A stretch of DNA of 64,000 nt from the NCBI GenBank assembly GCA_964514655.1, contig CAZEQY010000005.1:37589-101588 (forward strand), given 5' to 3'. The DNA comes from an uncultured bacterium. Lineage in GTDB: Bacteria; Chlamydiota; Chlamydiia; Chlamydiales; FEN-1388. This document shows positions 17,794 to 54,232 of this stretch, piece by piece (the first letter of the stretch is position 1; each line of letters begins with the position of its first letter). Below the pieces are notes generated by a model that worked only from the letters and a program-made list of their open reading frames with translations, was not told the origin of the DNA and did no database searches. The translations under genes were made by a program, and so were the position numbers.

Positions 17794-19782
17794 ATGAAGA
17801 AGGAATGCGAGACGATGAAGAACATATGTTCATGGGGCGTTTTTATGCTGGTTGTAGTTACAGGATTAAGCCTGGAGCTACATGCAGAGCATCATCCAAA
17901 AAAAACAAAAGCGGGAAAAGAACAATCTCCACGCGCTAAAGCTGCAGATAACTTTGCATCTCTTCAGCTTAACCTCGAGCGGCTTAAAGAGCTTGGCCCA
18001 GAGTTTATGGGGCCGCATGACATCCAGCTTAGCAAGCTTATCGGAGATGTGCTCGATCAAGCACAGGCCGTTGTCAACGAAGGAAAACCAAACCCCTATG
18101 ACGTAAATAAAGCACTCAATTCAGTAAAAAAGCTGTTAAGCTACCTTAAACAAAAAAAGGTGCGTGTTAAAGATCACCTCGAAAGCTCAAGTGCCGACCT
18201 TGGCCTAGGGTGTGATTTTTGTTCTGAACTTAGCGACCTTGAATCTGAGGTGTCAAAGTGCTGTAAAACAATTAAGGCACAGATTATCGCTATTTTGCGG
18301 CTGTTGCAAGAAGATCTTCCCTGCGATCCGCCTATAGCAATTTCTTCAGTTCCTGTAACCATTTCTCAGCCGGGAAAATACTGTGTCAAACAAGATCTCG
18401 TATATAATGGCGCTAATGCTGCAATTACGGTGACGGCAAATAATGTTACAATAAATTTCCATAGCCACAGCCTTACCTTAACGAACAGCAGTGCCCAAGG
18501 TATCCTTGTCGAGAGTCTCACATCAACGCCGGTACGAGAGTTTACGCTTGAAAATGACATCATCCAAGGCTCTGGCCTCTTTAAGACAGCAACAAGTGCT
18601 GCTGTCTCACTTGTAAACGTAGAAAAGGCAACACTTCGCGATGTATACACCTTTAATACAACAAAGGGTATTTCAATTACCAATTGTACTGATGTCCTTG
18701 TAGAAAATTCCCTTGTAAGCAACCACGAAGGCTTATCGGTTCCAACAACAGCAAGTGTTGGTGCCGGTATATTTGTAGACTCATCTACGAGCGTAACTAT
18801 TGAGTCTTGCGACTTTGAGGGAGCAGGCCTATCCCCTGTTACGAACCCAAATGAAGCATCAAATGCCCTGATTGTTCAAGGTACATCGCAAGATCTGTCT
18901 GTGCAGAATTGTACCTTCAATAACTGGCTAAATACATTTACGATCAACCAAGTAAATGGCATGCTTATCGATAACTGCTTAGCAGATGCTGCGTCGGTAT
19001 CGACAAGCAACCTACTTGAGCTTGGCTCTACAACCACCCAAGGCCTTGATGTTACAATTCGTAACTCTACATTTACCCAAGACACGCTCGTCCCAGGTTT
19101 TGATGGGCTCTTTTTTATCAATGGCTCCGGCTGTTTGATGGAAAATGTCATCGTTGACGTTACTACAGGTAATGACGGCAATGTAAATCCTTATTTCCCG
19201 GCTGCTATTCACATTGGCTGCGCGGTTAACGGCCACGTAAGCTGCGGGCCTCCATACCTTGCCTTTACAGATCTACTTGCCAAAAACTGCATCATAAAGG
19301 GAGCTAACCAGTATGGGCTTTTAGTTGAAAATGGCTCTTATATTACCTTTACTGACAGCCAGTTTACAGGTGCATCTGTTGCAAACATATTCTTAGATGG
19401 CGCTGTTGATGTAAATCATGTGAGCACATTTGGTGCTTTAGGATGTGTTATCAAAAATTCAATAGTAACAAACGCTGTAGGATCTGGCGTAGGCGTGCTT
19501 ATCAATCCGGGTGCAAATTCCAATGCACTAGTAAATTGTGATGTAAGCAACAATAGCCAAGATGGCGTAGCGATTTCTCAGTACGCCCTCAACAACCTCA
19601 TTACTGGCAATAGTGTCTATGACAATGGCAATCATGGCATCATTAACAGCGAGTCAACATCGATGACCTATTACAATACAAGCTGTCACAATGCTGCTGG
19701 CTTAAGTTGTGTAGGAGTAACCCCCTCTCAAGTGCCGGGCACCACCGAAGTAGCAGGTTCCAACATATGCTGTTCTCCATAA
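17794..19782 (+). CDS. Secreted parallel beta-helix repeat protein, paralog 1 (Cys-capped family)
   Basis: Signal peptide (MKNICSWGVFMLVVVTGLSLELHA; alternative start at 17815). Repeated N-x-x-G-I/V PbH1-like turns. It shares blocks with the next two genes: CD..CC helix, PCDP, PGKYCV, INFHSHSLTLTN and the C-terminal NTSCHN...GSNICCSP. Confidence 0.75.
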   Translation: MKKECETMKNICSWGVFMLVVVTGLSLELHAEHHPKKTKAGKEQSPRAKAADNFASLQLNLERLKELGPEFMGPHDIQLSKLIGDVLDQAQAVVNEGKPNPYDVNKALNSVKKLLSYLKQKKVRVKDHLESSSADLGLGCDFCSELSDLESEVSKCCKTIKAQIIAILRLLQEDLPCDPPIAISSVPVTISQPGKYCVKQDLVYNGANAAITVTANNVTINFHSHSLTLTNSSAQGILVESLTSTPVREFTLENDIIQGSGLFKTATSAAVSLVNVEKATLRDVYTFNTTKGISITNCTDVLVENSLVSNHEGLSVPTTASVGAGIFVDSSTSVTIESCDFEGAGLSPVTNPNEASNALIVQGTSQDLSVQNCTFNNWLNTFTINQVNGMLIDNCLADAASVSTSNLLELGSTTTQGLDVTIRNSTFTQDTLVPGFDGLFFINGSGCLMENVIVDVTTGNDGNVNPYFPAAIHIGCAVNGHVSCGPPYLAFTDLLAKNCIIKGANQYGLLVENGSYITFTDSQFTGASVANIFLDGAVDVNHVSTFGALGCVIKNSIVTNAVGSGVGVLINPGANSNALVNCDVSNNSQDGVAISQYALNNLITGNSVYDNGNHGIINSESTSMTYYNTSCHNAAGLSCVGVTPSQVPGTTEVAGSNICCSP

Positions 19783-19783
19783 T

Positions 19784-21409
19784 ATGAGGAAAAACTCTAT
19801 GAATACACCCATTCGCAAATTATGCCTCCTAGCCATGTTGCTGGGAGGATCTAGCTCTCTATATGCCTCAAGCTCAACGTCGCATAAACCCTGCGACATG
19901 AAGCAAGAAATCGATGAGCTAGATTCTGAGTTTGACTCGTGCTGTAAAGATATTCAAGATGAACTTACCCAGATTGAAGACTTTATTGATACGGCATTTA
20001 CTTGCGATGATGTTCACCCGATAAACCAAGTGCCTATACTCATCAATCAGCCTGGCAAATACTGTGTTATTAAAGATCTCGTTTATCCCGGAACAGATGC
20101 TGCGATAACTGTTGTTGCTGACAACGTTTCCATCAACTTTCATAACCATGACCTTGTCTTGACAAATGGCAAAAGTCAGGGCGTTGTTGCTAAAAATGTG
20201 AGCGAGTTTGTGCTTGAAAATGACGCTATCTTTGCTGAAACGGTGTGTATGTTCGATACGAGTGTTGCGGTTCACCTTATTAACGTCAAAAAAGCAACGA
20301 TCAGCAATATATTCACTAAAAACACTACAAAAGGCATCTGGATTGACAATTCTAGCGATGTGCTTGTAAAAAACTCTCACCTAGATTCTCATGAAGGTAC
20401 TGTTCAAATAGTGTTCCCAAGCCCCGCAACACTTGCAGGGACTGGTAATGGCGCTGGTATCTGGGTAAATAATTCTAGCGGCGTTGAAATTGACACCTGC
20501 ACATTTATAGGAGCGGACTGCCCCTTTGCTGCTACAAGAACAGGCTTTGGCTTGCATGTAGAAGAAAACACAAAAAACCTCATCCTTAAAAATAGCTCAT
20601 TCTCAAATTGGATTGGCTCAATTCACGCTCCAAGCGTTACCGGGATGCTTATTGATGACTGTGTAGCCATAAACTCACTAAATTCGTCCCTCAATGTTGT
20701 GCAGCTTGGCAGCTGTTCTGATGAACAGGCAAATGATGTAATCATCAGAGATTCTACCTTTATCTATAATGGTGGCTTGCCAGGTGTTGATGGCATTCTT
20801 TTGGCAGCTGGTTCTGGCTGCCTTTTAGAAAATCTACTTGTAGACACTACCTCATCAGCGATTGACAATACCTACTTTCCGGGAGGCATCCACGTAGGGC
20901 TCCAAGGATGTGACTCTGGCTACCAAAATGTGCAGGGACTAAACTGCATCATAAAAGGGGTAAACTACAGCAATTTAAACATGGAAAACTGCAAAAATGC
21001 GGTCTTTGAGCGTTGCACAATATCCGATTCTATCTATGCAAATGTACTTATGAACGATCCTACAACAAGCTCTAAGCTAAAAGATTGCACAGTTTTTGAT
21101 GGGCAAAATTATGGCGTGTTTTTAAATACATCTACCGGTGGAGCAAATGCTGTTACCGGCTGCCAGATATACAACAACGCTAATTATGGGTTAACTGATA
21201 GCGTCACGCCGCTAGAGACCAATCTATTTACTGCCAACAACGTCTACAGCAATGGCGCTGGCATCTTTGTTGCAAATTCCGGAATGACCATGACGTTCTT
21301 TAATACCTCATGCCATAATACAGCGACTAACTGCTCGGCGTTTGTTAGCCCTAACCAAGCTCCTGGAGCATCTCCAATCGTTGCGGGGTCTAATGTTTGC
21401 TGCCCATAA
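19784..21409 (+). CDS. Secreted parallel beta-helix repeat protein, paralog 2
   Basis: Starts 1 nt after paralog 1's stop. Signal peptide LCLLAMLLGGSSSLYA. It carries the same conserved blocks (CDMKQEIDELDSEFDSCC, PGKYCV, INFHNHDLVLTN, NTSCHN...GSNVCCP). It lacks the ~100-aa helical linker found in paralogs 1 and 3. Confidence 0.75.
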   Translation: MRKNSMNTPIRKLCLLAMLLGGSSSLYASSSTSHKPCDMKQEIDELDSEFDSCCKDIQDELTQIEDFIDTAFTCDDVHPINQVPILINQPGKYCVIKDLVYPGTDAAITVVADNVSINFHNHDLVLTNGKSQGVVAKNVSEFVLENDAIFAETVCMFDTSVAVHLINVKKATISNIFTKNTTKGIWIDNSSDVLVKNSHLDSHEGTVQIVFPSPATLAGTGNGAGIWVNNSSGVEIDTCTFIGADCPFAATRTGFGLHVEENTKNLILKNSSFSNWIGSIHAPSVTGMLIDDCVAINSLNSSLNVVQLGSCSDEQANDVIIRDSTFIYNGGLPGVDGILLAAGSGCLLENLLVDTTSSAIDNTYFPGGIHVGLQGCDSGYQNVQGLNCIIKGVNYSNLNMENCKNAVFERCTISDSIYANVLMNDPTTSSKLKDCTVFDGQNYGVFLNTSTGGANAVTGCQIYNNANYGLTDSVTPLETNLFTANNVYSNGAGIFVANSGMTMTFFNTSCHNTATNCSAFVSPNQAPGASPIVAGSNVCCP

Positions 21410-21431
21410 ATTTTATAAGAGGAATAGATCA

Positions 21432-23234
21432 ATGAATATCGCACTCTTGACAATACTTCTTAGCGTATTTTCCTTTACAACGCTTTCGGCTCAAGATGCC
21501 CCATCAACACTTGGTGTTGCAAAAACTCGCCTTAAAGCATCTATGAAAGAGGTTAAAGATCCCCAGCTGCAAAAACTTGGACAAGATGCCCTTAAAAAAA
21601 TAGACCGCGCGCACAAAGACCCTAAAAAAGCAGACGCTGCTCTTCATGCGGTAAACAAGGTTTTGGCTGTAATCAAACAAAAGCATATCCATACCGTAAG
21701 CACAAGCTCTTCAGGAAAGTCGTGCGATGTACGAGATGAAATCAGCGAGCTAGACTCACAGGTTAAAGCGTGCTGCACTGACATAAAACGCCTTCTTACT
21801 GAGCTATTAAACTTTGTACATACGGCGTATCCTTGCGATCCTATAATTCCTATAGATACAGTGCCGGTTTTGCTAGCAGAATCCGGCAAATACTGCGTAA
21901 CGACCGATTTAACATACACAGGCCCAGGAGCTGCGATTCAAGTTTCAGCAAGCAATGTGCATATTAACTTTCATAATCATGACCTTACCCTCACAGATCC
22001 TGCAGCTATCGGTATTTTAGTAGAAAATGCGAGCGAGTTTGTGCTTGAAAATGACAGCATCCAAGGAACAAGCATCTTTAAAACTTCTACTAGTGCTGCT
22101 GTAAGTCTATTGGGTGTAAATAAGGCTACTCTTCGCAATGTCTTTACAAAAAATACGACAAAGGGGCTGTTTCTTGTCGATTGCACCGATGTGCTTGTCG
22201 AGTTTTGTCACTTTGACTCTCACGAAGGTACCATCACACCAATCTTTCCTAGCCCTGCAACGTTAGTAGGCACAGGAGATGGTGCCGGCGTCTTTGTAAG
22301 TGGCTCTAACGGCGTTACAGTAGATACCTGCACCTTTGTTGGCGCTAACCTTGGATCAGACCCTACTCGAACGGGCTTTGGCGTACATATCGAGGAAAAT
22401 GCCAAAAATTTTACGCTAAAAGATAGCGCCTTTAGCAACTTACTGGGTTCTATACATGCTGTGAGTGTTGATGGTGTGTTGGTAGAAAATTGTACCTTTA
22501 ATGCATCTACAGTTTCTAACTTTAATATTGCGCAATTTGGAAGTTGCGAGCTAGGAACCGTGGCTGATAATGTCATTATTAGAAATGCGACATTTACCCA
22601 ATCACAAGTTGTACAGGGTTTTGATGGGCTTCTTTTTGTTGCAGGCTCTGGCTGCTTGCTAGAAGATATTGTCGTCAACTCTTCATCACAAGACATACAG
22701 ACCTACAGTCCTGCTGCCATCCACATAGGCAACCAAAGCTGTGGCAACTATTCAAACCTCGTAGGAAGAAATTGCATAGTGACCGGAACAAATGGAAGAT
22801 CGCTCTATATTGACAATGGCTCTAACATAGTCTTTGAAGATTCCCAGTTTTCAGGAGCATCAGTTGCAAACGTCTATATGAATGCAGCAACAAGCTCAAG
22901 CATCAGAAATTCTACGATCTTTAATGGCTCTAGCGGCGTTATTATTTCTAACCCTACTAGCTCTGGCGCTCAAGGAAATGCTATAGAAAACTGCCTTGTC
23001 TATAACAACACAAACTACGGTATTGAAGTGCTAGATCAGAATAAGCACCATCTATCCGGAAATCATGCCTGGTCTAATGCAACAGGTATCTATCTTTTAT
23101 ATGCAGGATTTACTGAGACTTATAACAATACCTCATGTAAGAACACTACCCAAAGCTGCAATAACGTAACTCCAAGCCAGCTTCCGGGCGCATCACCTAT
23201 ACTTGCTGGCTCAAATGTCTGCTGCACACCGTAA
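21432..23234 (+). CDS. Secreted parallel beta-helix repeat protein, paralog 3
   Basis: I prefer the ATG at 21432 (after AAGAGGAA), which gives the signal peptide MNIALLTILLSVFSFTTLSA. The track start at 21342 overlaps paralog 2. Conserved blocks: CDVRDEISELDSQVKACC, SGKYCV, INFHNHDLTLTD, NTSCKN...GSNVCCTP. Confidence 0.75.
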   Translation: MNIALLTILLSVFSFTTLSAQDAPSTLGVAKTRLKASMKEVKDPQLQKLGQDALKKIDRAHKDPKKADAALHAVNKVLAVIKQKHIHTVSTSSSGKSCDVRDEISELDSQVKACCTDIKRLLTELLNFVHTAYPCDPIIPIDTVPVLLAESGKYCVTTDLTYTGPGAAIQVSASNVHINFHNHDLTLTDPAAIGILVENASEFVLENDSIQGTSIFKTSTSAAVSLLGVNKATLRNVFTKNTTKGLFLVDCTDVLVEFCHFDSHEGTITPIFPSPATLVGTGDGAGVFVSGSNGVTVDTCTFVGANLGSDPTRTGFGVHIEENAKNFTLKDSAFSNLLGSIHAVSVDGVLVENCTFNASTVSNFNIAQFGSCELGTVADNVIIRNATFTQSQVVQGFDGLLFVAGSGCLLEDIVVNSSSQDIQTYSPAAIHIGNQSCGNYSNLVGRNCIVTGTNGRSLYIDNGSNIVFEDSQFSGASVANVYMNAATSSSIRNSTIFNGSSGVIISNPTSSGAQGNAIENCLVYNNTNYGIEVLDQNKHHLSGNHAWSNATGIYLLYAGFTETYNNTSCKNTTQSCNNVTPSQLPGASPILAGSNVCCTP

Positions 23235-23295: not shown

Positions 23296-25512
23296 ATGCC
23301 CAAAAAACCTCCTAAAGGAGACAAGCCGAGTGCAAAGCAAGAGCGCTTGTTTCAAAACCTGCTTAAAGTAACCTATGAATATATTAAGGGCAGGCATTAC
23401 TCCCCTCAAAATAAAGAGACTCTTATAGAGAGGCTGAGGATACATCCAGAACATCTTGAGATCTTTGACCTAGTGCTCAAAGACCTTAAAACGGCAGGTA
23501 AAGTGGAACAGACTGGCGATAAATTGGTTTCTCAGGAAGAGAGCAAGAAAGAAAAAGTCGTTGTGGGTACTATCAAGATGCATCCACGAGGCTTTGGGTT
23601 TGTTGTGCTCAAGGAGTCATCAGAGCAAGATGTCTTTATTCCAAAACCCTATGTAAATAATGCTATCGACGGCGATGTTGTTGAAGTTGCCATAAACCTT
23701 GAAGCTATATCAGAGCGTGGCCCTGAAGGCAAAGTGTTAACGATTGTTTCTCGAAAGAGAAAGACACTTGTGGGCACCATCTCAGACGTTACAAACCAAA
23801 AAGCTTATGCTTACTGCAGCATGCTTGGAGAAAAGCGCCAGGTAATAATACCAAATGGCGAGCGAAAGTTAAAAGTTGGCGATAGAGTACTTGTAGAGGT
23901 TACTAAATGGGGCGATAAAGAAGAAAGTGCGCAAGGAGATCTTTCAAAGATCATTGGCCACATTTCGGATCCTTTATCAGATATCCCTGCCGCTATACTT
24001 GAAAACGAAATTCGCACAGATTTTCCACAGGATGCTGTTGAAGAAGCCCTTGCCTTTGGCACGCGCGTGAGAAAAGAAGATCTTGAAGGTCGTGAAGATT
24101 TACGCGATCTTGAATGCTTTACGATAGACCCAGATACTGCTAAAGACTATGACGATGCCATATCGCTAGAACATAAAAACGGCCTTTGGGAGCTTGGCGT
24201 ACATATTGCTGATGTATCACACTATGTTCGTGATAAGTCGGCGCTAGATCGCGAAGCATCGCTTCGCTGTAATTCTACCTACTTTCCTGCAAAATGCATT
24301 CCTATGTTGCCCTCAGAGCTTTCTGACAATCTCTGTTCGCTGCGTGAAGGTGTTCTTAGGCTTACTGTGAGCGTCTTTATTGTGATTGACAATCAAGGTG
24401 AAACAAAGAACTACCGCATTAGCCGCAGCGTTATAAAAAGCAAAAAGCGTTTTACCTATAAGCAGGCAAAAAAGGTGCTTGATGGAGAGTTGGAAAGTGT
24501 GCATAAAGAAAAGCTCCACAACATGGTAGAGGCATGTCACCTTCTCAAGAAAAAGCGCCGAGAGCGCGGCAGCGTAGAGCTTTGCATGCCCGAATTTGTG
24601 GTGAAGGTAGATGAAAAGGGCGTTCCTGTTGGCACTGAAGTGATTGAGTATGATATCACTCACCAGATGGTCGAAGAGTTTATGCTTAAAGCCAATGAAA
24701 TTGTGGCAATAGCGCTTACAAAACAGGGAAAAAATGCGACGTTTAGAGTGCACGAAGAGCCTGCTAAAGAGTCTCTTCGAGAGTTTGCAACGCTTGCATC
24801 TTCTTTTGGCTATAACTTGCCGCAAGATCCTACGCCGCAAGATATGCAAATCTTTTTTAGCGAACTTGACGAAGGCCAAACTGCTCAGTATCTAGCTACT
24901 TGCTATATTCGCAGCATGCGCCTTGCATGCTACTCTCCAGATAATATAGGCCACTATGGCCTAAGCCTTGAGCACTATACGCACTTTACAAGCCCAATTC
25001 GCCGCTATGTTGATACAATCATCCATCGCCTACTCTTTGAAGGTAATATAGATCGCGATAAGCTTTTAGAAATTAGCAACGATGCCTCCGAAAAAGAGCG
25101 CATTTCAGCCCGTGCTGAAGGTAGTGTGATATTCTTAAAGAAGCTGCGTTTGTTAGAGAAGTGTTATAATGAAGCTCGCCACAGAACCTTTGAAGCAGTT
25201 ATTACTCGCGTTAAGCCTTTTGGAATCTACTTTGACGTGTTAGAGTTTATGCTTGAGGGCTTTTTGCATGTCTCAGAGCTGGATAGCGACTTTTTTGATT
25301 ATAGCGAACGAGAGATGATGCTTATGGGGCGCTACTTAGGCCTTAGCTATAAGGCCGGAGATAAGCTTGCAGTATCTGTAGGCCATATTGACTTTATCTT
25401 GCAGGAATGCTCGTGGAAGCTTGTTACTCACACTGATGAGGTTGGACAAGTATCAAAGCGCGCCTATGAAAAAGACAGGAAACGGCGTAAAGGAAATAGA
25501 CGCAGGCGGTAA
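23296..25512 (+). CDS. rnr: Ribonuclease R (VacB)
   Basis: RNB-domain motif HYGLSLEHYTHFTSPIRRYVD, an S1-like C-terminal region and a basic tail KRRKGNRRRR. The protein is 738 aa. Confidence 0.92.
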   Translation: MPKKPPKGDKPSAKQERLFQNLLKVTYEYIKGRHYSPQNKETLIERLRIHPEHLEIFDLVLKDLKTAGKVEQTGDKLVSQEESKKEKVVVGTIKMHPRGFGFVVLKESSEQDVFIPKPYVNNAIDGDVVEVAINLEAISERGPEGKVLTIVSRKRKTLVGTISDVTNQKAYAYCSMLGEKRQVIIPNGERKLKVGDRVLVEVTKWGDKEESAQGDLSKIIGHISDPLSDIPAAILENEIRTDFPQDAVEEALAFGTRVRKEDLEGREDLRDLECFTIDPDTAKDYDDAISLEHKNGLWELGVHIADVSHYVRDKSALDREASLRCNSTYFPAKCIPMLPSELSDNLCSLREGVLRLTVSVFIVIDNQGETKNYRISRSVIKSKKRFTYKQAKKVLDGELESVHKEKLHNMVEACHLLKKKRRERGSVELCMPEFVVKVDEKGVPVGTEVIEYDITHQMVEEFMLKANEIVAIALTKQGKNATFRVHEEPAKESLREFATLASSFGYNLPQDPTPQDMQIFFSELDEGQTAQYLATCYIRSMRLACYSPDNIGHYGLSLEHYTHFTSPIRRYVDTIIHRLLFEGNIDRDKLLEISNDASEKERISARAEGSVIFLKKLRLLEKCYNEARHRTFEAVITRVKPFGIYFDVLEFMLEGFLHVSELDSDFFDYSEREMMLMGRYLGLSYKAGDKLAVSVGHIDFILQECSWKLVTHTDEVGQVSKRAYEKDRKRRKGNRRRR

Positions 25513-25515
25513 TGT

Positions 25516-26115
25516 ATGAAGAAGTATTTTGTGACAGGTCTTGTGGTGCTTTTGCCCCTTGCGCTTACCTATTGGGTGGTGAGCTTTATTTTAGGGGTGC
25601 TGACAGAGCCATTTACAGGAATTGCCGGCGCTACGTTAAAGCTATTTGGTGTACAGTCTAAAGAGGCTTTAGAGCTTGGCGAAAAGCTGCTATCTTTAGT
25701 GCTCTTGTTTGCGCTCATCATTGGTATTGGAGCTATTGGTCGCTATTTCTTCTTTAAGTACCTTCTGCAGCTATCTGATGCGATCTTGCATCGCATACCG
25801 GTCGTTTCTGCAGTGTATAAGACCTCTCAGGAGCTTATTCAGTCAGTTTTTAAGCAGGATAGCACGTCATTTCGTCGCGTTGTATTTGTGCCATTTCCCC
25901 ACGCCGGCTCCTACACGGTGGGCCTTGTCACACAGGAAGAGACGTTCGATGGCCGCATGGCAGTGTTTATACCTACAACGCCCAATCCAACATCTGGTTT
26001 TTTGCTTATGTTTAATAAGGATGAGGTAACTGCTGTGGACATGAAGGTAGAAGAGGCTCTTCGCTACGTTATTTCGTGCGGCGTTCTTATGCCTGAGGTA
26101 CAAAAGAGCGAATGA
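25516..26115 (+). CDS. DUF502-family membrane protein, copy 1
   Basis: N-terminal TM segment VTGLVVLLPLALTYWV and the motif PTTPNPTSGFLLMF. Confidence 0.75.
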   Translation: MKKYFVTGLVVLLPLALTYWVVSFILGVLTEPFTGIAGATLKLFGVQSKEALELGEKLLSLVLLFALIIGIGAIGRYFFFKYLLQLSDAILHRIPVVSAVYKTSQELIQSVFKQDSTSFRRVVFVPFPHAGSYTVGLVTQEETFDGRMAVFIPTTPNPTSGFLLMFNKDEVTAVDMKVEEALRYVISCGVLMPEVQKSE

Positions 26116-26750
26116 GAAAGTGCTTTTTGGTAGGGCTGATAACGCTTTTACCGGTTATTCTGACATATGTGATCCTTGCATTTGGTATTGGCATTGTTAC
26201 ATCGCCTTTTGAGCGCCTTGTTAATTTTACGCTAGATAAGTTTCCCCTTTTTGAAGATGGCTTTGGCATTTTTACACACAGGCAGGTGGTTGGTTTTTTA
26301 AGCAAGATACTTATCTTATGCCTCCTGGTATTATTTATAACTTTAATTGGTTTTCTAGCTGCAAGAGTATTTTTTCATACCTGGGGCTACTACTTTGATA
26401 GGCTGATGCGCAAAATTCCTATCGTACGTAGAATCTACGGCCCATCAAAAGAATTAGTTGACGCCCTTTTTAGGCATGAACAAGATGCGCCGCGTAAAGC
26501 TGTTATGGTGCCCTATCCAACCTACAAAAATAAGGCTGTAGGTATCCTTACGGGCGAATTTAACTTAAAGCTCAAAGATAAAAATGAGGCTTTTTGCTCG
26601 GTATTTGTCCCTGCTACGCCAAATGCTACTTCAGGCTTTCTCTGCTCGTTTCGAAAAGAGGACGTAATCCCGCTGGATCTCACTGCGGATGAGGCTCTTA
26701 AATATGTAATGAGCTTTGCATCAACTAACCCAATTGCGATAAAAGAATAA
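26112..26750 (+). CDS. DUF502-family membrane protein, copy 2 (tandem paralog)
   Basis: 4-bp overlap with copy 1. LVGLITLLPVILTYVI and PATPNATSGFLCSF are present. Confidence 0.75.
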   Translation: MRKCFLVGLITLLPVILTYVILAFGIGIVTSPFERLVNFTLDKFPLFEDGFGIFTHRQVVGFLSKILILCLLVLFITLIGFLAARVFFHTWGYYFDRLMRKIPIVRRIYGPSKELVDALFRHEQDAPRKAVMVPYPTYKNKAVGILTGEFNLKLKDKNEAFCSVFVPATPNATSGFLCSFRKEDVIPLDLTADEALKYVMSFASTNPIAIKE

Positions 26751-49376: not shown

Positions 49377-50339
49377 GTGTTAGAGGCAATTGGTAACTTT
49401 CTTTTAAGGCGACTTGTTGTATCGGTGCTTACGCTCTTTGCGATAGCAACGGCAACGTTTTTCCTCATGCACCTTGTGCCGGGAGATCCCTTTGCCGAAG
49501 AGTCTTTAACAGTGCCTCCAGAGACACTTAAAGCAATAAAGCACTACTACGGCCTTAACGACCCTATTCATCTACAGTACTCGCGCTATATCCTGCAGGT
49601 CTTTACCTTTGATTTTGGCCCATCACTTAAATACACATCGCAAACGGTAAACCAGATTATCTTTGGAGGCCTGCCAATTTCAGCTACACTTGGTCTTGAA
49701 GCACTTCTTTTTGCTATACCTTGCGGCATTCTTTTTGGCACGCTCTCTGCACTCAACTCTCGGGGCTATTCCAACGTCGCCCTCACATCCTGCGCTGTGC
49801 TTGGCGTCTCTATACCTACATTTGTCCTTGCAGCGGGTTTGCAGTTTCTTTTTGCCTTTTATTTTCCGATATTTCCGGTAGCCCGTTGGGGCACGTTTTC
49901 GCACACCGTGCTTCCGGCCCTTGCTTTAGCGATTGGCCCCACCTGCTATATTGCAAGGCTACTTCGCGTCAATATGCTTGAAGTATTTACAAAAGAATAT
50001 GTGCAAGTAGCACGCCTCAAAGGCCTTTCAGAAAGGCGCGTAGTATTTGTGCACGTTCTTAAAAATGCCATTATCCCCATACTCTCTTACCTCGGGCCCG
50101 TTACAACAAATGTCTTAGTGGGCAGCTTTGCTGTAGAGCGCGTCTTTGGTATACCTGGCCTTGGGTTGTGGTTTGTAAATAGCGTTATAAACCGTGATTT
50201 TCCTGTAATTGGCGGCCTTACGCTCTTTTACAGCATACTGCTTATCTTTAATCACACTGTGATAGATCTATTGTGCGCGCTATTAAATCCGGAGGCTAAA
50301 AGTTTGCTAAAATCTAAAAAGGTGCAAGTAGCTACATGA
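49377..50339 (+). CDS. oppB: Oligopeptide ABC transporter permease
   Basis: GTG start after GAGG. The EAA-loop region is EYVQVARLKGLSERRVVFVHVLKNA. Confidence 0.88.
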   Translation: MLEAIGNFLLRRLVVSVLTLFAIATATFFLMHLVPGDPFAEESLTVPPETLKAIKHYYGLNDPIHLQYSRYILQVFTFDFGPSLKYTSQTVNQIIFGGLPISATLGLEALLFAIPCGILFGTLSALNSRGYSNVALTSCAVLGVSIPTFVLAAGLQFLFAFYFPIFPVARWGTFSHTVLPALALAIGPTCYIARLLRVNMLEVFTKEYVQVARLKGLSERRVVFVHVLKNAIIPILSYLGPVTTNVLVGSFAVERVFGIPGLGLWFVNSVINRDFPVIGGLTLFYSILLIFNHTVIDLLCALLNPEAKSLLKSKKVQVAT

Positions 50340-51274
50340 GAGATGATTTTGCCCTACTCTCGGATGAGATGAAAGAAGAAATCCTTGCCCAAAACGAACC
50401 CAAGGCTCGTCCGCCAGCATCTATTTTTTCAATACTTGTACGCCACAAAAGTATCATGATAGGTCTCATCATCTTAAGTATCCTTATTTCGATGGCAATT
50501 TTTGGGCCTCTTTTAAGCCCCTACTCGTATCAGCAGACAGACCTTCCAAACAAAAACCTACCCCCTTGCTGGGAACATATTTTTGGCACCGACGAACTTG
50601 GGCGCGACATGTGGACACGCGTATGTGTAGGCCTTAGAATATCGCTTGAAATAGGTCTTGTAGCTGCGCTTGTTGACCTTTTTCTCGGGGTAAGTTGGGG
50701 TATGACAGCAGGCCTTTCTGGCGGCAATACCGACCATGTGATGATGCGTATTGCTGAGATGATATTTTGTTTGCCCTATCTTCTCTTTGTTATTCTGATC
50801 ACGGTTATTGTTGGGCCTGGCTTTGCCCCTATTATAGCTGCTATGGTCATCATCGGCTGGATACAGATGGCACGAATTACAAGGAGTTTAGTGATTGGCA
50901 TCAAGCAGACAGAGTACTTTAGGGCAGCTCGCTCTTTAGGTGTTACAACTCCTGGTCTTATTAGGCGCCACATCCTGCCAAATATTTCAGGTCCAGTTAC
51001 ATGCATTGTCATGTTGAGTATCCCTCAGGCAATATTTGCTGAAGCTTTTTTAAGCTTTTTGGGCATTGGCATGCAGCCCCCTTTAGCAAGCCTTGGCTCA
51101 CTTGTGAGCGATGCTCTTGGTGCTATGCGCTTTTATCCATGGCGTCTCTTTATTCCATCGGTTACAATTACTTTTACGATCTTTGCCTTTAACCTACTTG
51201 GCGATGGCTTGCGAGATATGCTTGATCCGCAGTCGCGTCGTTTTTTAAACCAGCGCGTTAAGGAGGCATCATGA
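50336..51274 (+). CDS. oppC: Oligopeptide ABC transporter permease
   Basis: 4-bp overlap with oppB. Motifs HIFGTDELGRDMW and EYFRAARSLGVTTPGLIRRHILPN are present. Confidence 0.88.
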   Translation: MRDDFALLSDEMKEEILAQNEPKARPPASIFSILVRHKSIMIGLIILSILISMAIFGPLLSPYSYQQTDLPNKNLPPCWEHIFGTDELGRDMWTRVCVGLRISLEIGLVAALVDLFLGVSWGMTAGLSGGNTDHVMMRIAEMIFCLPYLLFVILITVIVGPGFAPIIAAMVIIGWIQMARITRSLVIGIKQTEYFRAARSLGVTTPGLIRRHILPNISGPVTCIVMLSIPQAIFAEAFLSFLGIGMQPPLASLGSLVSDALGAMRFYPWRLFIPSVTITFTIFAFNLLGDGLRDMLDPQSRRFLNQRVKEAS

Positions 51275-52242
51275 GTCTTCTTTCGGTACAAAACCTCATT
51301 GTCACACTCGATACATCGCATGGCAGAGAGCCGCTTGTTCGCGATATTTCGTTTGACCTCTATCCCCATAAAACGCTTGCATTAGTGGGAGAGTCAGGTT
51401 CCGGTAAGACGATAACTGCAATGGCGATCATGAACCTCTTTCGCTCTCCGCTCACAAAAGTTACGAGCGGCAAGATACTCTTTGAAGGCGAAAATCTTTT
51501 AGATAAGTCATCCCTTGAAATGCGACGTCTTAGAGGCAAGGACCTCGCCTTTATCCCTCAGAGTCCCCTTAGTTGTTTAAACCCAACACTGCAGATAGGC
51601 ACGCAGCTTATGGAGTCTATGTGTAAAGACATCTACCCTACCTACGATGATCGCTATTTTGCAGCTGCTGAAATGCTGCGCCAGGTAGGGTTTTCAGACT
51701 GCATGAGGCGCCTTTCAGCATATCCTCATGAGCTTTCTGGTGGTATGAGGCAGCGCTTACTTATTGCTATGGCCCTTATAAACCGCCCTAAGGTTGTGAT
51801 TGCTGATGAGCCAACAACGGCTCTTGATGTAACGATTCAGGCCCAGGTGCTAGATCTTCTGATGCAGCTACAGCAAGAGCTTGGTATGAGTCTTCTCTTT
51901 ATCACACACGACATGGGCGTTGTTGCAAAAATTGCAGACTACGTCGCTGTCATGTATGCAGGAAAGATTGTTGAGCAAGCTGATGTTAAGAAGATATTCG
52001 AAAAACCGGAGCACCCCTATACCCAGGCGCTTTTAGCATGTTTACCTCGCCTTAAGGACCATCATGCAAGTGAGCTACGCCCCATTCAAGGCTCGCCTCC
52101 GCATATAGGCCAGTATCTTGGCATGTGTTCGTTTATGCCGCGATGTCCCTATGCGATGAAGATATGTGCAGAAAAAGCACCTTTGTTAGAAGATATAGAT
52201 GATAAGCATCAATGCTGCTGCTTTAGGACAAAAAAACGATGA
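51271..52242 (+). CDS. oppD: Oligopeptide ABC transporter ATPase
   Basis: Walker A GESGSGKT, signature LSGGMRQR, Walker B VVIADEPTTALD and the oligopeptide C-terminal Cys motif. Confidence 0.9.
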   Translation: MSLLSVQNLIVTLDTSHGREPLVRDISFDLYPHKTLALVGESGSGKTITAMAIMNLFRSPLTKVTSGKILFEGENLLDKSSLEMRRLRGKDLAFIPQSPLSCLNPTLQIGTQLMESMCKDIYPTYDDRYFAAAEMLRQVGFSDCMRRLSAYPHELSGGMRQRLLIAMALINRPKVVIADEPTTALDVTIQAQVLDLLMQLQQELGMSLLFITHDMGVVAKIADYVAVMYAGKIVEQADVKKIFEKPEHPYTQALLACLPRLKDHHASELRPIQGSPPHIGQYLGMCSFMPRCPYAMKICAEKAPLLEDIDDKHQCCCFRTKKR

Positions 52243-53189
52243 CACCACTTTATGAAATAAAGCAAGTTGACGTTCAGTACCACCTTAAAAGCTCCAAATT
52301 TTTGGCGCTTAGAGATGTGGACCTTGAGGGCTTTTTGGGGCAGACTCTTGGCATTGTCGGTGAAAGTGGCTGTGGCAAGTCTACCTTGGCAAAAACGCTG
52401 ATGTGCATTCATCCCCCCACACATGGACGTGTCTTTTTTGATGGCAAAGAGCTGACGGGCCTTTCTGCTAAAGAGCAGCGTCAGGCACTTCGCGGCATGC
52501 AGATGATCTTTCAAGATCCGGATGCCTCGCTAAACCCGCGTATGTCTGTCGCAGATCACCTTAAAGAGGCAATACTTACTTCTAAGGTAGAGTTTAGCGG
52601 TAAAATCGAAGACTATATCAAAGATCTACTCGATATGGTGCAGCTTCCGCAAAGTACGGCAAAGATGTACTCCTATCAGCTTAGTGGCGGGCAAAAGCAG
52701 CGGGTAAGTATCGCAAGAGCTTTGAGCGTAAAGCCAAAGCTCCTTATTTGCGATGAGCCGCTTTCATCGCTTGATGTCTCAGTAGTTGCGCAGATTATCT
52801 TGCTTTTAAAGAAAATTCAAGAAGAGCAAGGGATTTCTTATCTCTTTATTACGCACGATCTTGCAACGCTGCGCTACCTAGCGCATCGCCTTTTAGTACT
52901 TTATCTTGGCCGTGTTATGGAAGTAGCGCCAGCTGAAGATGTGTTTAAAGAAGCCTTGCATCCATATACACAAGCGCTTATGGCAAGCATCCCCGTTCCT
53001 GACCCAACGGCAGAGCGAGAGCCTGCCAAGTTATGTATCGTCGGAGACCCCCCTTCTATTGTAGACCCTCCAAAGGCATGCGTTTTTCATACACGATGTC
53101 CTTACGCTACAGAGGCCTGTCGTCATATCGCACCGCGGCTTAAAGAAGTGCGCCCGGGCCATTTTGTTGCATGCCATCTATATAGTTAA
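52239..53189 (+). CDS. oppF: Oligopeptide ABC transporter ATPase
   Basis: Walker A GESGCGKST, signature LSGGQKQR and LLICDEPLSSLD. Confidence 0.9.
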   Translation: MTPLYEIKQVDVQYHLKSSKFLALRDVDLEGFLGQTLGIVGESGCGKSTLAKTLMCIHPPTHGRVFFDGKELTGLSAKEQRQALRGMQMIFQDPDASLNPRMSVADHLKEAILTSKVEFSGKIEDYIKDLLDMVQLPQSTAKMYSYQLSGGQKQRVSIARALSVKPKLLICDEPLSSLDVSVVAQIILLLKKIQEEQGISYLFITHDLATLRYLAHRLLVLYLGRVMEVAPAEDVFKEALHPYTQALMASIPVPDPTAEREPAKLCIVGDPPSIVDPPKACVFHTRCPYATEACRHIAPRLKEVRPGHFVACHLYS

Positions 53190-53371: not shown

Positions 53372-54232
53372 ATGAATAAAATGTATTCGCTTTTATGTGC
53401 ACTTGCAATATTTTTCGTAAGTCAAACACCGACAAAGGCTCTCGCTGCTGACACATGCACACTCTCCGGTGTATTTTGGATGCAGCATCTTGAAGTGTGG
53501 CCACAATCTTTTACACCAGATAGTGAAATCTGTGGACTGACTTTCAGTGAAATCATGCAAACACCATCTGATGGAACGCCTTGGTATATCTTAGCTCACG
53601 AGTGGATTCCGGCTCAGCTTAATATTGCAAATGGGGCTGTTTCAGAGTGTGTGCAGGCCGAGTTTCAGCAGGCTACAGCACTTTTAAAAAATTGCGATTT
53701 TTCCCAAAATCCAAGCGATATCTCAGACTATCTCGTTCTTACAGGAGCGCTAGCTGACTACAATAATGGCGTGCTTATTGGCTGCCCAGGTTGTCCTGAA
53801 GGCACTATTGTGATATGCCCACCATGTGTGTGCCCGCAGTGTCCTGCTTGTCCAAGTTGCTGCTGCCCACCATGCCCAGCATGTGAGTGTGGCGACTGTG
53901 GATGTTTCTGCCCTGAGCCTGCTGAATGCGAATGTGGCGACTGTGTATGCCCTCCAGCTGCTCCTTGCCCAGATTGCAACTGCCCTGATCAGACAGAGTG
54001 CATCTGCAACTGCCCAGAGGCGCCAGCTTGCAACTGCCCTCCAGCTCCAGATTGCAACTGCCCAAGCTGTCCTCCGGTTCCGGCTTGCAACTGTAACTGT
54101 GAGCCACAGGTGATTGTAGAAGAGTCTTCATCTTCATCACACTGCCATCATAAGCATCATCACAATGAGGTTAAGAAGACGAGCAAAAAAGCTCCTTCAA
54201 AGCCAAAAGTAAAGCCAAGAACAAAGCATTAA
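53372..54232 (+). CDS. Secreted protein with an extreme Cys/Pro-rich repeat region and a His/Lys-rich tail
   Basis: Signal peptide MNKMYSLLCALAIFFVSQTPTKALA. The ~100-aa stretch CPPCVCPQCPACPSCCCPPCPACECGDCGCFCPEPAECECGDCVCPPAAPCPDCNCPDQTECICNCPEAPACNCPPAPDCNCPSCPPVPACNCNCEPQ is followed by SSSSSHCHHKHHHNEVKK. Confidence 0.7.
   Translation: MNKMYSLLCALAIFFVSQTPTKALAADTCTLSGVFWMQHLEVWPQSFTPDSEICGLTFSEIMQTPSDGTPWYILAHEWIPAQLNIANGAVSECVQAEFQQATALLKNCDFSQNPSDISDYLVLTGALADYNNGVLIGCPGCPEGTIVICPPCVCPQCPACPSCCCPPCPACECGDCGCFCPEPAECECGDCVCPPAAPCPDCNCPDQTECICNCPEAPACNCPPAPDCNCPSCPPVPACNCNCEPQVIVEESSSSSHCHHKHHHNEVKKTSKKAPSKPKVKPRTKH

Follow-up and report, generated by a model that had tools for sequence, protein, structure and literature searches.

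Attachment and envelope proteins are, to our knowledge, poorly known outside the Chlamydiaceae, and environmental chlamydiae infect protists. [quoted passage not shown] An adhesin role is plausible for the Pmp proteins and for the array described here alike. Our analysis of a 64,000-nucleotide window from an uncultured member of the Chlamydiales indicates that three adjacent genes encode a family of exported, cysteine-rich, barrel-less right-handed beta-helix proteins, as predicted from sequence and structural models, and that this family is without prior characterisation; no publication on it was found in the literature.

Gene layout and the A-B cassette

All three genes lie on the + strand. 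The A-type gene, paralog 1 (17794..19782, 662 aa in the ORF list), encodes a predicted signal peptide at approximately aa 1-31, a helical region (aa 51-129), a cysteine-bracketed helix (C140, C143, C156, C157 ... C177), a beta-helix (aa 181-659) and a putatively Cys-stapled C-terminal cap ending at 19779. The first B-type gene, paralog 2 or 'B2' (19784..21409, 541 aa), has a signal peptide, Cys helix, beta-helix and a C-cap that ends at 21406, while the second, paralog 3 (21432..23234, 600 aa), comprises a signal peptide (aa 1-20), a helical region (aa 27-89), the Cys helix, a beta-helix (aa 139-597) and the C-cap, and matches database protein P0001 at 100%. This third ORF was called as 21342-23234 from a TTG at 21342; its start is most likely the ATG at 21432, because a Shine-Dalgarno-like AAGAGGA can be read from the sequence 8 nt upstream (21417..21423, + strand). 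With this start, the intergenic distances reported in the initial annotation, 1 nt and 22 nt, are borne out. Terminator-like matches on the + strand of the array showed no excess over shuffles (7 vs 9.3 expected region-wide).

The three translations share 41-50% pairwise identity (41-44% to paralog 1, and 49% between paralogs 2 and 3), which is not the level of random sequence, and between-paralog tblastn E-values of 1e-88 to 1e-152 lie far beyond chance. Every motif that had been picked out by eye in the initial annotation is found in the alignment of the three proteins, namely the C..CC helix, PCD/TCD, GKYCV, NFH.H, KAT...T.NTTKG, HEG, G[FV]DG..GSGCL.E and NTSC..AGSN[IV]CC. Each protein indeed ends 1-2 residues past the CC, and in paralog 2 about 100 aa are missing from the N-terminal helical region, as described (alignment gap, columns 29-129).

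The proposed tandem triplication holds insofar as there are three paralogs, but not as a simple local event, since the unit is an older A-B gene pair. Adjacent pairs in 12 related loci run A then B in 19/19 cases, with an A-to-B gap of 1-30 nt in 18 of the 19 (the remaining pair, in L008, has an ambiguous start) and B-to-A gaps between cassettes of 10-4190 nt; each locus holds 1-3 cassette copies, often adjoined by RNase R. Because pair order and close spacing are constant across related loci, the sequence evidence indicates a bicistronic A-B unit of old origin, in place before these MAGs diverged from one another, and the array here reads as A-B-B with the B gene duplicated. An A-B2-B triplet in this order is also found on Logan contig L019. 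In an NJ tree the members split into clades A and B, with paralog 1 in clade A; bootstrap values for this split are modest (A 28/50, B 39/50), and indels specific to the A or B type are present. Clade A orthologues of paralog 1 are 55-77% identical to it, and orthologues of paralog 2 occur as P0009 in L019 (75% identity) and at L004:5078 (73%).

Relatives numbered 23 in a word-limited search of 5.8 billion proteins and 318 representatives at E<=1e-30 in an exhaustive profile search. The suggested lineage restriction agrees with the origin of the genome loci, 16/16 of which belong to uncultured MAGs carrying the labels Chlamydiales, Parachlamydiaceae, 'Verrucomicrobia bacterium' or 'uncultured bacterium'. 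Divergence, also part of the original proposal, is faster than in a housekeeping neighbour: relative to L001, RNase R is 82% identical, the A copy 56% and the B copy 48%. All three genes have a dN/dS of 0.07-0.11, a sign of purifying selection.

The flanks of the array contain leuS, two unknown ORFs, rnr and DUF502 genes. RNase R (rnr; 23296..25512, + strand, Pfam RNB E 5e-104) lies downstream, and an 82%-identical rnr directly follows the array in L001, L005, L007 and L010; in L001 and L007, effector-like genes stand between cassettes. Upstream, outside the family, an 848-aa secreted repeat protein with 24% Gly (15134..17680, + strand) carries two GGA[ILV] motifs and could represent a further protein of the envelope or solenoid type; it has no Pfam or NCBIfam match, and the flanks of L001-L016 contain nothing equivalent. 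Elsewhere in the window, a secreted 286-aa protein with 14% Cys is encoded at 53372-54232.

Predicted beta-helix fold and cysteine pairing

Signal peptides can be recognised by eye in the three genes, as had been noted, from a hydrophobic core that is combined with a basic n-region and a small-x-small site; nearly all of 44 relatives show the same pattern. The expected PbH1-type body corresponds to Pfam Beta_helix PF13229, with scores of 66.2, 78.7 and 82.4 bits where the gathering threshold is 25.9 (E 3e-18 for paralog 1). The proteins also appear to be free of an autotransporter barrel, in keeping with the initial description: they have no Autotransporter Pfam domain, and the last beta-helix strand lies 1-2 residues before the protein end. 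A Pfam search of the three proteins at E<=1 returned no autotransporter, Pmp or any other extra domain. Neither a lipobox, a barrel nor a known sorting signal is evident in the proteins, and surface exposure is an assumption because no anchor is evident.

AlphaFold2 models predict approximately 13 rungs of right-handed beta-helix with three strands to a rung, most of them at pLDDT >90 and unbroken up to the last residues. The paralog 3 model has a pLDDT of 84.8 and a pTM of 0.75, that of paralog 1 a pLDDT of 80.7 with a high-confidence beta-helix, and the Cys-bracketed helix is predicted at low to moderate pLDDT. Foldseek against the PDB gave generic beta-helix matches only, the best 50 of 92 at E<=0.001 all being beta-helix proteins. 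Conservation is greatest in rungs 1-5 (aa 136-266) and in the cap (aa 561-600), with a mean top-residue frequency of 0.61-0.65 at these ends vs 0.45-0.52 in the more variable middle. Rungs 1-5 contain a polar set (K153, H183, E202, D208, K231 and H264) present in 67-82% of 105 representatives.

In paralog 3, the C-terminal cap (23127..23231, + strand, aa 566-600: NNTSCKNTTQSCNNVTPSQLPGASPILAGSNVCCTP) is modelled with strands at 567-569, 574-577 and 595-597, and its four cysteines covary as C576-C597 (phi 0.97) and C569-C598 (phi 0.94) across 176 relatives (paralog 3 numbering). Seven sequences with partial Cys loss fit exactly these two pairs, their patterns being ACCS, YCCA, CYSC, CQVC, CAVC and CVDC. 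The best reading of this covariation is that the terminal Cys pair forms two intramolecular staples, C569-C598 and C576-C597. More distant relatives have the same C-terminal cap with zero cap cysteines, and because the cap is retained without Cys it would be a structural module. At the N-terminal cap, C135 is probably bonded to C155 in the first rung (phi 0.74). The tail after the CC ranges from 0 to ~47 residues across relatives. Rab-type prenylation had rightly been discounted: the proteins have Sec-like signals, this tail is variable, and the terminal cysteines covary with upstream ones as disulfide partners.

These pairings bear directly on the model put forward in the initial annotation, in which the proteins belong to a disulfide-cross-linked chlamydial outer-membrane complex and are tethered intermolecularly via the terminal Cys pair. 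The three genes are indeed rich in cysteine (3.0-4.1% Cys vs a median of 1.5% among window ORFs >=250 aa), and among these ORFs only the one at 53372-54232 (14% Cys) ranks above them, joined in the case of paralog 3 by a second ORF at 3.1%; the former makes Cys-rich exported proteins a theme of the genome. The one-to-one covariation of the terminal cysteines with upstream cap cysteines, with which the partial-loss sequences agree, and the existence of Cys-free caps nevertheless disfavour the terminal CC as a cross-linking handle. In addition, many body cysteines remain in relatives with a Cys-less cap (1.8% vs 2.35%), a persistence that fits interior stack positions rather than cross-links, and OmcA, OmcB and MOMP homology is absent in Pfam and NCBIfam searches. 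The Cys-bracketed helix of paralog 3 (aa 98-135; 21723..21836, + strand) holds C98, C114, C115 and C135; covariation resolved no partner for the first three, and with no inferred intramolecular partner the helix pair C114/C115 is still a possible intermolecular handle. On balance, we regard membership in a cross-linked outer-membrane complex as improbable. These observations caution that a Cys-Cys at the end of a chlamydial protein need not mean a cross-linking handle.

Candidate functions outside the cytoplasm

We tentatively favour, at slightly short of an even chance, a role for the A and B proteins as an exported ligand- or glycan-binding, adhesin-like pair directed toward the host and working outside the cytoplasm. 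The operon-like cassette would yield an A-type and then a B-type protein, made together and probably working as a pair, each built from a long Cys-bearing helix, ~13 rungs and a C-cap, with ~70-100 aa of helical region and a Ser-rich linker optionally in front. Cleavage of the signal peptide would accompany Sec export, and periplasmic oxidation of the two C-cap disulfides and C135-C155 could then produce rigid, protease-resistant rods. These may act at the cell surface or be released into the inclusion or vacuole, where, as modules that bind ligands and most likely glycans, they would act like adhesins toward a protist host, the conserved ends mediating folding, assembly and docking and the variable middle rungs conferring specificity.

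The main rival to glycan binding is that these proteins are secreted carbohydrate-active enzymes, such as a polysaccharide lyase, glycosidase or epimerase, that act on host, cyst-wall or own glycans, with A and B differing in specificity. The top PDB folds are AlgE4/AlgG epimerases, phage tailspike depolymerases, a fucoidan lyase and a GH87 glucanase, yet these are generic resemblances, and weak ones (TM 0.2-0.45, E ~1e-6). AlgG was matched in a profile search at E 2e-5; PDB profile matches, however, have E>=1.9e-5 and cover ~110 residues of C-terminal PbH1 repeats outside the AlgG catalytic region, and NCBIfam AlgG scores 13 bits vs a cut-off of 700. No alignment reached a known catalytic motif of AlgG/AlgE, pectate lyase or GH28, and among curated family models no characterised enzyme family claims these proteins, in line with the initial expectation. 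Polar residues do occupy consecutive N-terminal rungs (K153, H183, E202, D208, K231, H264, D398, H431), and the part of this set in rungs 1-5 could have a catalytic function instead of forming a patch for binding or structure. In a comparison over the wider family, however, no column with D/E/K/R from residue 130 on attains 80% within the Cys-capped set: the columns at or above that level are occupied by G, N, I, V, A, L, P, F, Y, S, T, Cys and H183, the latter at 82% vs 49% in Cys-less relatives. The central rungs, the usual cleft site of beta-helix enzymes, are moreover the most variable part. Taken together, these features make an enzymatic role unlikely.

Annotation by fold also raises the possibility of a NosD-like periplasmic accessory, a beta-helix partner of an ABC-type system for metal or sulfur species, which we consider very remote. 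A Pfam NosD domain (PF05048) is matched at 27-47 bits vs a cut-off of 23.6 and the top viral-library fold match is annotated 'NosD', but the PF05048 match overlaps generic PbH1 repeats only, NCBIfam TIGR04247 scores 10.9-23.4 bits vs a cut-off of 300, and no nosZ, nosF or nosY stands beside the array.

An extension of the adhesin reading, quite improbable as a whole, is that A and B form a hetero-oligomer, a barrel-less beta-helix adhesin that replaces the Pmp autotransporters in Pmp-poor environmental chlamydiae. In this picture the adhesin would be tethered reversibly, through the unpaired C98, C114 and C115, to an envelope under redox control. Relatives with a Cys-free cap would have lost the stapled form, a stabilising module particular to the lineage, and the same scaffold would move among protist-associated bacteria and giant viruses.

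Given a common fold and a putative function only, the value of these observations is at present descriptive. The family nonetheless has a recognisable signature, consisting of the Cys-bearing helix, the beta-helix body and the FNTSCNN...AGSN[IV]CC cap, and comes with a specific, testable disulfide map. The strict A-then-B pairing was unexpected and is conserved over many uncultured lineages. Should the A-B pair turn out to act as an adhesin on the surface, or as an enzyme on host glycans, it would become a candidate determinant of host range and could serve to recognise these lineages in metagenomic data.

Relation to described beta-helix systems

Like the chlamydial Pmp adhesins, the array genes are multi-copy and tandem, with signal peptides and a predicted beta-helical passenger-type body. 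Unlike Pmp, they have 0 GGA[ILV] and 1-4 FxxN motifs each, give no Chlam_PMP Pfam match at E<=1, and appear to lack a C-terminal barrel because the beta-helix continues to the last residues; no sequence homology to Pmp was detected. Pls1 and Pls2 are likewise adjacent paralogous genes for passenger-like proteins without a barrel, and set a precedent for the exit of such solenoid proteins from chlamydiae; the array proteins differ from them in their Sec-like signals, Cys staples, distinct cap and lack of similarity to Pmp models.

Relatives with a Cys-less cap in other intracellular-type bacteria (e.g. P0098, P0141; loci L017, L018) have the same length, both caps and adjacent multi-copy genes, with the four cap cysteines replaced, typically by F/Y, Y, S/N and A, and the N-terminal Cys helix missing. 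One such locus, L017, has the synteny TLC-TLC-[array]-dnaX-der in common with the Cys-capped L015. The best structural match found is Klosneuvirus A0A1V0SKK2 ('NosD'; E 1e-18, target-normalised TM-score (TMt) 0.79, 20% identity). Fold and repeat type are those of generic PbH1/CASH proteins (PF13229), among them AlgG/AlgE epimerases and phage tailspike depolymerases, and the N-terminal cap motif VP..I...G.Y....L.....AI.I.A.NV.L recurs in proteins by the thousand, with 3783 representatives at E<=1e-10. In contrast to generic PbH1 proteins, the array family possesses its own C-cap, FNTSCNN..NC..V.P.Q.PG....AGSN[IV]CC, together with an N-terminal Cys-bearing helix and A-B gene pairing.

The three-gene array and its predicted fold

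The three-gene, cysteine-rich beta-helix array described in the initial annotation is confirmed here. The genes occupy 17794-19782 (paralog 1, 662 aa), 19784-21409 (paralog 2, 541 aa) and 21342-23234 (paralog 3) of the forward strand, with the ATG at 21432 being the likeliest start of paralog 3 (600 aa) because an AAGAGGA sequence (21417-21423, forward strand) lies 8 nt upstream of it. This start yields intergenic gaps of 1 nt and 22 nt, matching the spacing originally given for these same-strand genes. Aligned over their full length, the proteins share 41-50% identity; the alignment contains every motif that had been listed and bears out the absence from paralog 2 of about 100 aa in the N-terminal helical region. 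Pfam searches of the three proteins returned Beta_helix at 66-82 bits (cut-off 25.9), a weaker overlapping NosD domain and nothing else, with no match to Pmp or autotransporter models. Each paralog has a Sec-signal-peptide-like N-terminus when judged by eye, consistent with the signal peptide that had been proposed for each gene; family-wide lipoprotein anchoring was rejected, as an LLGGC box is present in one orthologue and in none of the window genes. An Rfam search of the window gave no match, and a scan for promoters and terminators was uninformative, with counts not above those of shuffled sequence.

Cysteine content is 3.0-4.1% in the three paralogs versus a median of 1.5% among window ORFs of at least 250 aa. 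All three are exceeded by a 14%-cysteine ORF, paralog 3 also by one ORF at 3.1%, and by no others. The 14%-cysteine ORF (53372-54232, forward strand, 286 aa) has no Pfam match and follows closely after a set of opp-like ABC transporter genes (49377-53189). It combines a signal-peptide-like N-terminus with a C-terminal half made of a Cys/Pro repeat of CP.C type (CPPCVCPQCPACPSCCCPPCPACECGDCGC...CNCP...), after which come a run of Ser, a His-rich stretch and a Lys-rich tail, and it could be a cysteine-rich envelope or metal-binding protein. Immediately 5' of the array, at 15134-17680 on the forward strand, an 848-aa repeat protein with 24% Gly and a signal peptide carries two GGA[ILV] motifs and long tracts of GGxGG type; its C-terminal part is rich in repeats, and it has no barrel. 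Its gene overlaps the stop of a 272-aa ORF of unknown kind (14316-15134), neither Pfam nor NCBIfam gives a match for the protein, and the flanks of related loci contain nothing equivalent to it.

AlphaFold2 models built with family alignments (paralog 3, pLDDT 84.8 and pTM 0.75; paralog 1, pLDDT 80.7) both predict N-terminal helices, a low-confidence linker that is Ser-rich in many relatives, one long helix bearing conserved cysteines, and a right-handed beta-helix with some 13 rungs. This beta-helix stops no more than three residues short of the C-terminus, leaving no space for a barrel, and together with the Pfam result the models uphold the original description of a beta-helix body without an autotransporter barrel. 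Resemblance of the helical region to syntaxin or coiled coils was dismissed, the profile matches (E 0.03-0.5) being judged helix-composition noise.

The best structural neighbour found, in a comparison of model m17345e51568c with BFVD, is a Klosneuvirus KNV1 'NosD' protein (A0A1V0SKK2, 457 aa; E 1e-18, target-normalised TM-score 0.79, 20% identity), followed in rank by giant-virus beta-helix proteins of Barrevirus, Fadolivirus and Hyperionvirus. These model-based matches hint at a scaffold common to protist-associated bacteria and giant viruses. Scanning IMG/VR viral contigs with the family profile recovered no relative, and PHROGs contained no matching family. One relative, P0172, is likewise 457 aa long, and its identity with the Klosneuvirus protein was rejected because its contig is bacterial, with ECF sigma and kinase genes.

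A-B cassettes and their genomic setting

Among 5.8 billion proteins, a word-indexed search recovered just 23 relatives, all of them unnamed. Of 1.84 billion cluster representatives, 318 matched the family profile at E<=1e-30 and 3783 at E<=1e-10 in an exhaustive search. A pattern-limited scan, with each GTDB species represented by one genome, located 16 loci, all in uncultured MAGs assigned to Chlamydiales, Parachlamydiaceae, 'Verrucomicrobia bacterium' or 'uncultured bacterium' and none in a named cultured genus. Our literature search found nothing on this beta-helix family.

From these 16 loci and the window together we collected 44 family genes and built a neighbour-joining tree from the 43 longer than 400 aa, which resolved into two clades, A with paralog 1 and B with paralogs 2 and 3. 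Bootstrap support is only moderate (28/50 for A, 39/50 for B), and the A/B split is supported independently of the tree by positional alternation and by type-specific indels. All 19 adjacent pairs, across 12 loci, read A then B. Residues 273-277 of paralog 3 mark an insertion specific to B proteins, and residues 479-489 of paralog 1 one specific to A proteins. Within a cassette, A and B lie 1-30 nt apart, with one exception whose start is ambiguous, and the gaps between cassettes span 10-4190 nt. Arrays hold one to three cassettes (three in L002; two each in L001, L006, L007 and L010). Thus, of the tandem triplication first proposed, the three adjacent, related paralogs stand, and the repeating unit is an A-B cassette rather than a triplication, the window itself reading A-B-B. 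The same triplet, A (663 aa), paralog 2-type B (538 aa) and B (614 aa), separated by 16 and 21 nt, occurs on a Logan contig (L019) and in part at L004, so the extra B copy has been passed down within a sub-lineage.

In the window and at L001, L005, L007 and L010, the gene directly downstream of the array encodes RNase R (rnr, 82% identical). Relative to L001, identity is 56% for the A copy and 48% for the B copy against 82% for rnr, so by sequence comparison the family diverges faster than its neighbour. For the three window genes against their L019 orthologues, dN/dS is 0.07-0.11, ratios that are rough because dS (about 2) is saturated and that indicate purifying selection on all three. Directly 3' of rnr in the window are two DUF502 membrane-protein paralogs (25516-26750, forward strand; 199 and 212 aa, 4-nt overlap). 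The spacers of about 4 kb between cassettes at L001 (3935-7644) and L007 (4005-7990) hold unrelated effector-like genes, among them a 504-aa protein with an HCxxGxxRTG (CX5R phosphatase-like) motif at L001 and a protein at L007 that by eye resembles the endonuclease/exonuclease/phosphatase type. The rnr-adjacent site may be a variable host-interaction island.

Probable cysteine pairing in the C-terminal cap

The cap is a conserved C-terminal module containing C569, C576, C597 and C598 (paralog 3 numbering). A search for this terminus beyond the window found it retained in closer relatives as FNTSCNN..NC..V.P.Q.PG....AGSN[IV]CC. Cysteine co-occurrence, scored in 176 family sequences aligned to the family profile, was strongest for C576-C597 (phi 0.97; both, first only, second only and neither present in 109, 1, 0 and 18) and C569-C598 (phi 0.94; 110, 1, 0 and 8), followed by C135-C155 (phi 0.74; 108, 11, 4 and 29). 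Loss of C569 accompanies loss of C598 with the other two cap cysteines kept (ACCS twice, YCCA), loss of C576 accompanies loss of C597 in the same manner (CYSC, CQVC, CAVC, CVDC), and two sequences, CCCG and CCAC, depart from this rule. The last strand of the paralog 3 model (595-597) becomes part of the final rung, beside the strands bearing C569 and C576, and since adjacent strand residues point to opposite sides, C597 and C598 could each reach a different partner.

Distant relatives retain this cap and are of equal overall length, with the cap cysteines absent (..YN.AYNN..NY....PG....G.N[IL]SA). Taken together, cap pairing, last-strand placement and these cysteine-free caps suggest that the terminal CC is best read as part of two intramolecular disulfide staples, and the covariation and cysteine-free caps likewise disfavour the envelope cross-linking handle for which this CC was initially proposed. 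Cross-linking of the envelope through the CC of the long helix is a possible alternative. Covariation gives no clear partner for C98, C114 and C115 (98-437 is weak, phi 0.4-0.56), C101-C434 covaries weakly in A-type proteins (phi 0.56-0.61), and the helix itself is modelled at low to moderate pLDDT in paralogs 1 and 3. Body cysteines are retained in relatives with cysteine-free caps, at 1.8% versus 2.35%, and fall at NC.I-type repeat positions, which fits interior stacking.

Two relatives with cysteine-free caps lie on contigs L017 and L018 as adjacent multi-copy genes, and L017 additionally encodes two ATP/ADP translocases (TLC) and one ankyrin-repeat protein. The order TLC-TLC-[array]-dnaX-der is common to L017 (6636-21533) and the cysteine-capped L015 (848-20425) and is a second conserved location for the family. 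With the cap stapled at L015 and cysteine-free at L017, the cap cysteines were apparently gained or lost at this orthologous locus.

Putative function and comparison with known systems

Conservation peaks in rungs 1-5 (136-266) and the cap (561-600) and is lower in the central rungs. In a comparison of 105 cysteine-capped and 45 cysteine-less representatives over columns from residue 130 on, the residues reaching at least 80% in the cysteine-capped set are G, N, I, V, A, L, P, F, Y, S, T, the four cap cysteines and H183 (82%, against 49% in cysteine-less relatives); no D, E, K or R does so among these columns. A polar set conserved at 67-82% within the cysteine-capped family (K153, H183, E202, D208, K231, H264, D398, H431) could bind a ligand, be catalytic or serve as a structural ladder. 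As the leading reading, and with no more than moderate confidence, we propose that the beta-helix proteins would be exported and stapled by oxidation into rods, and that A and B would act as a co-expressed pair binding a ligand, probably a glycan, at the bacterium-host interface.

The leading alternative is that these proteins are carbohydrate-active enzymes. The top Foldseek matches in the PDB are to generic beta-helix enzymes (E ~1e-6, TM 0.2-0.45), comprising AlgE4/AlgG epimerases, the HK620, Sf6 and CBA120 tailspikes, a fucoidan lyase and GH87. By sequence, phmmer found no PDB match, and a PDB profile search gave matches at the level of PbH1 repeats, outside catalytic regions. NCBIfam enzyme and NosD models scored far below their cut-offs; the window proteins are not NosD and fall within no curated enzyme family. 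Nor are they Pmps, whose GGA[ILV] motifs and barrel are both absent. The nearest chlamydial functional analogies are the Pmp adhesins (PMC2997323) and Pls1/Pls2, barrel-less Pmp-like proteins whose route into the inclusion lumen is unknown (PMC6717882). The fold and the concept of a secreted beta-helix are ordinary; the novelty lies in the signature of the family, in its inferred disulfide map and in its strict A-B pairing.
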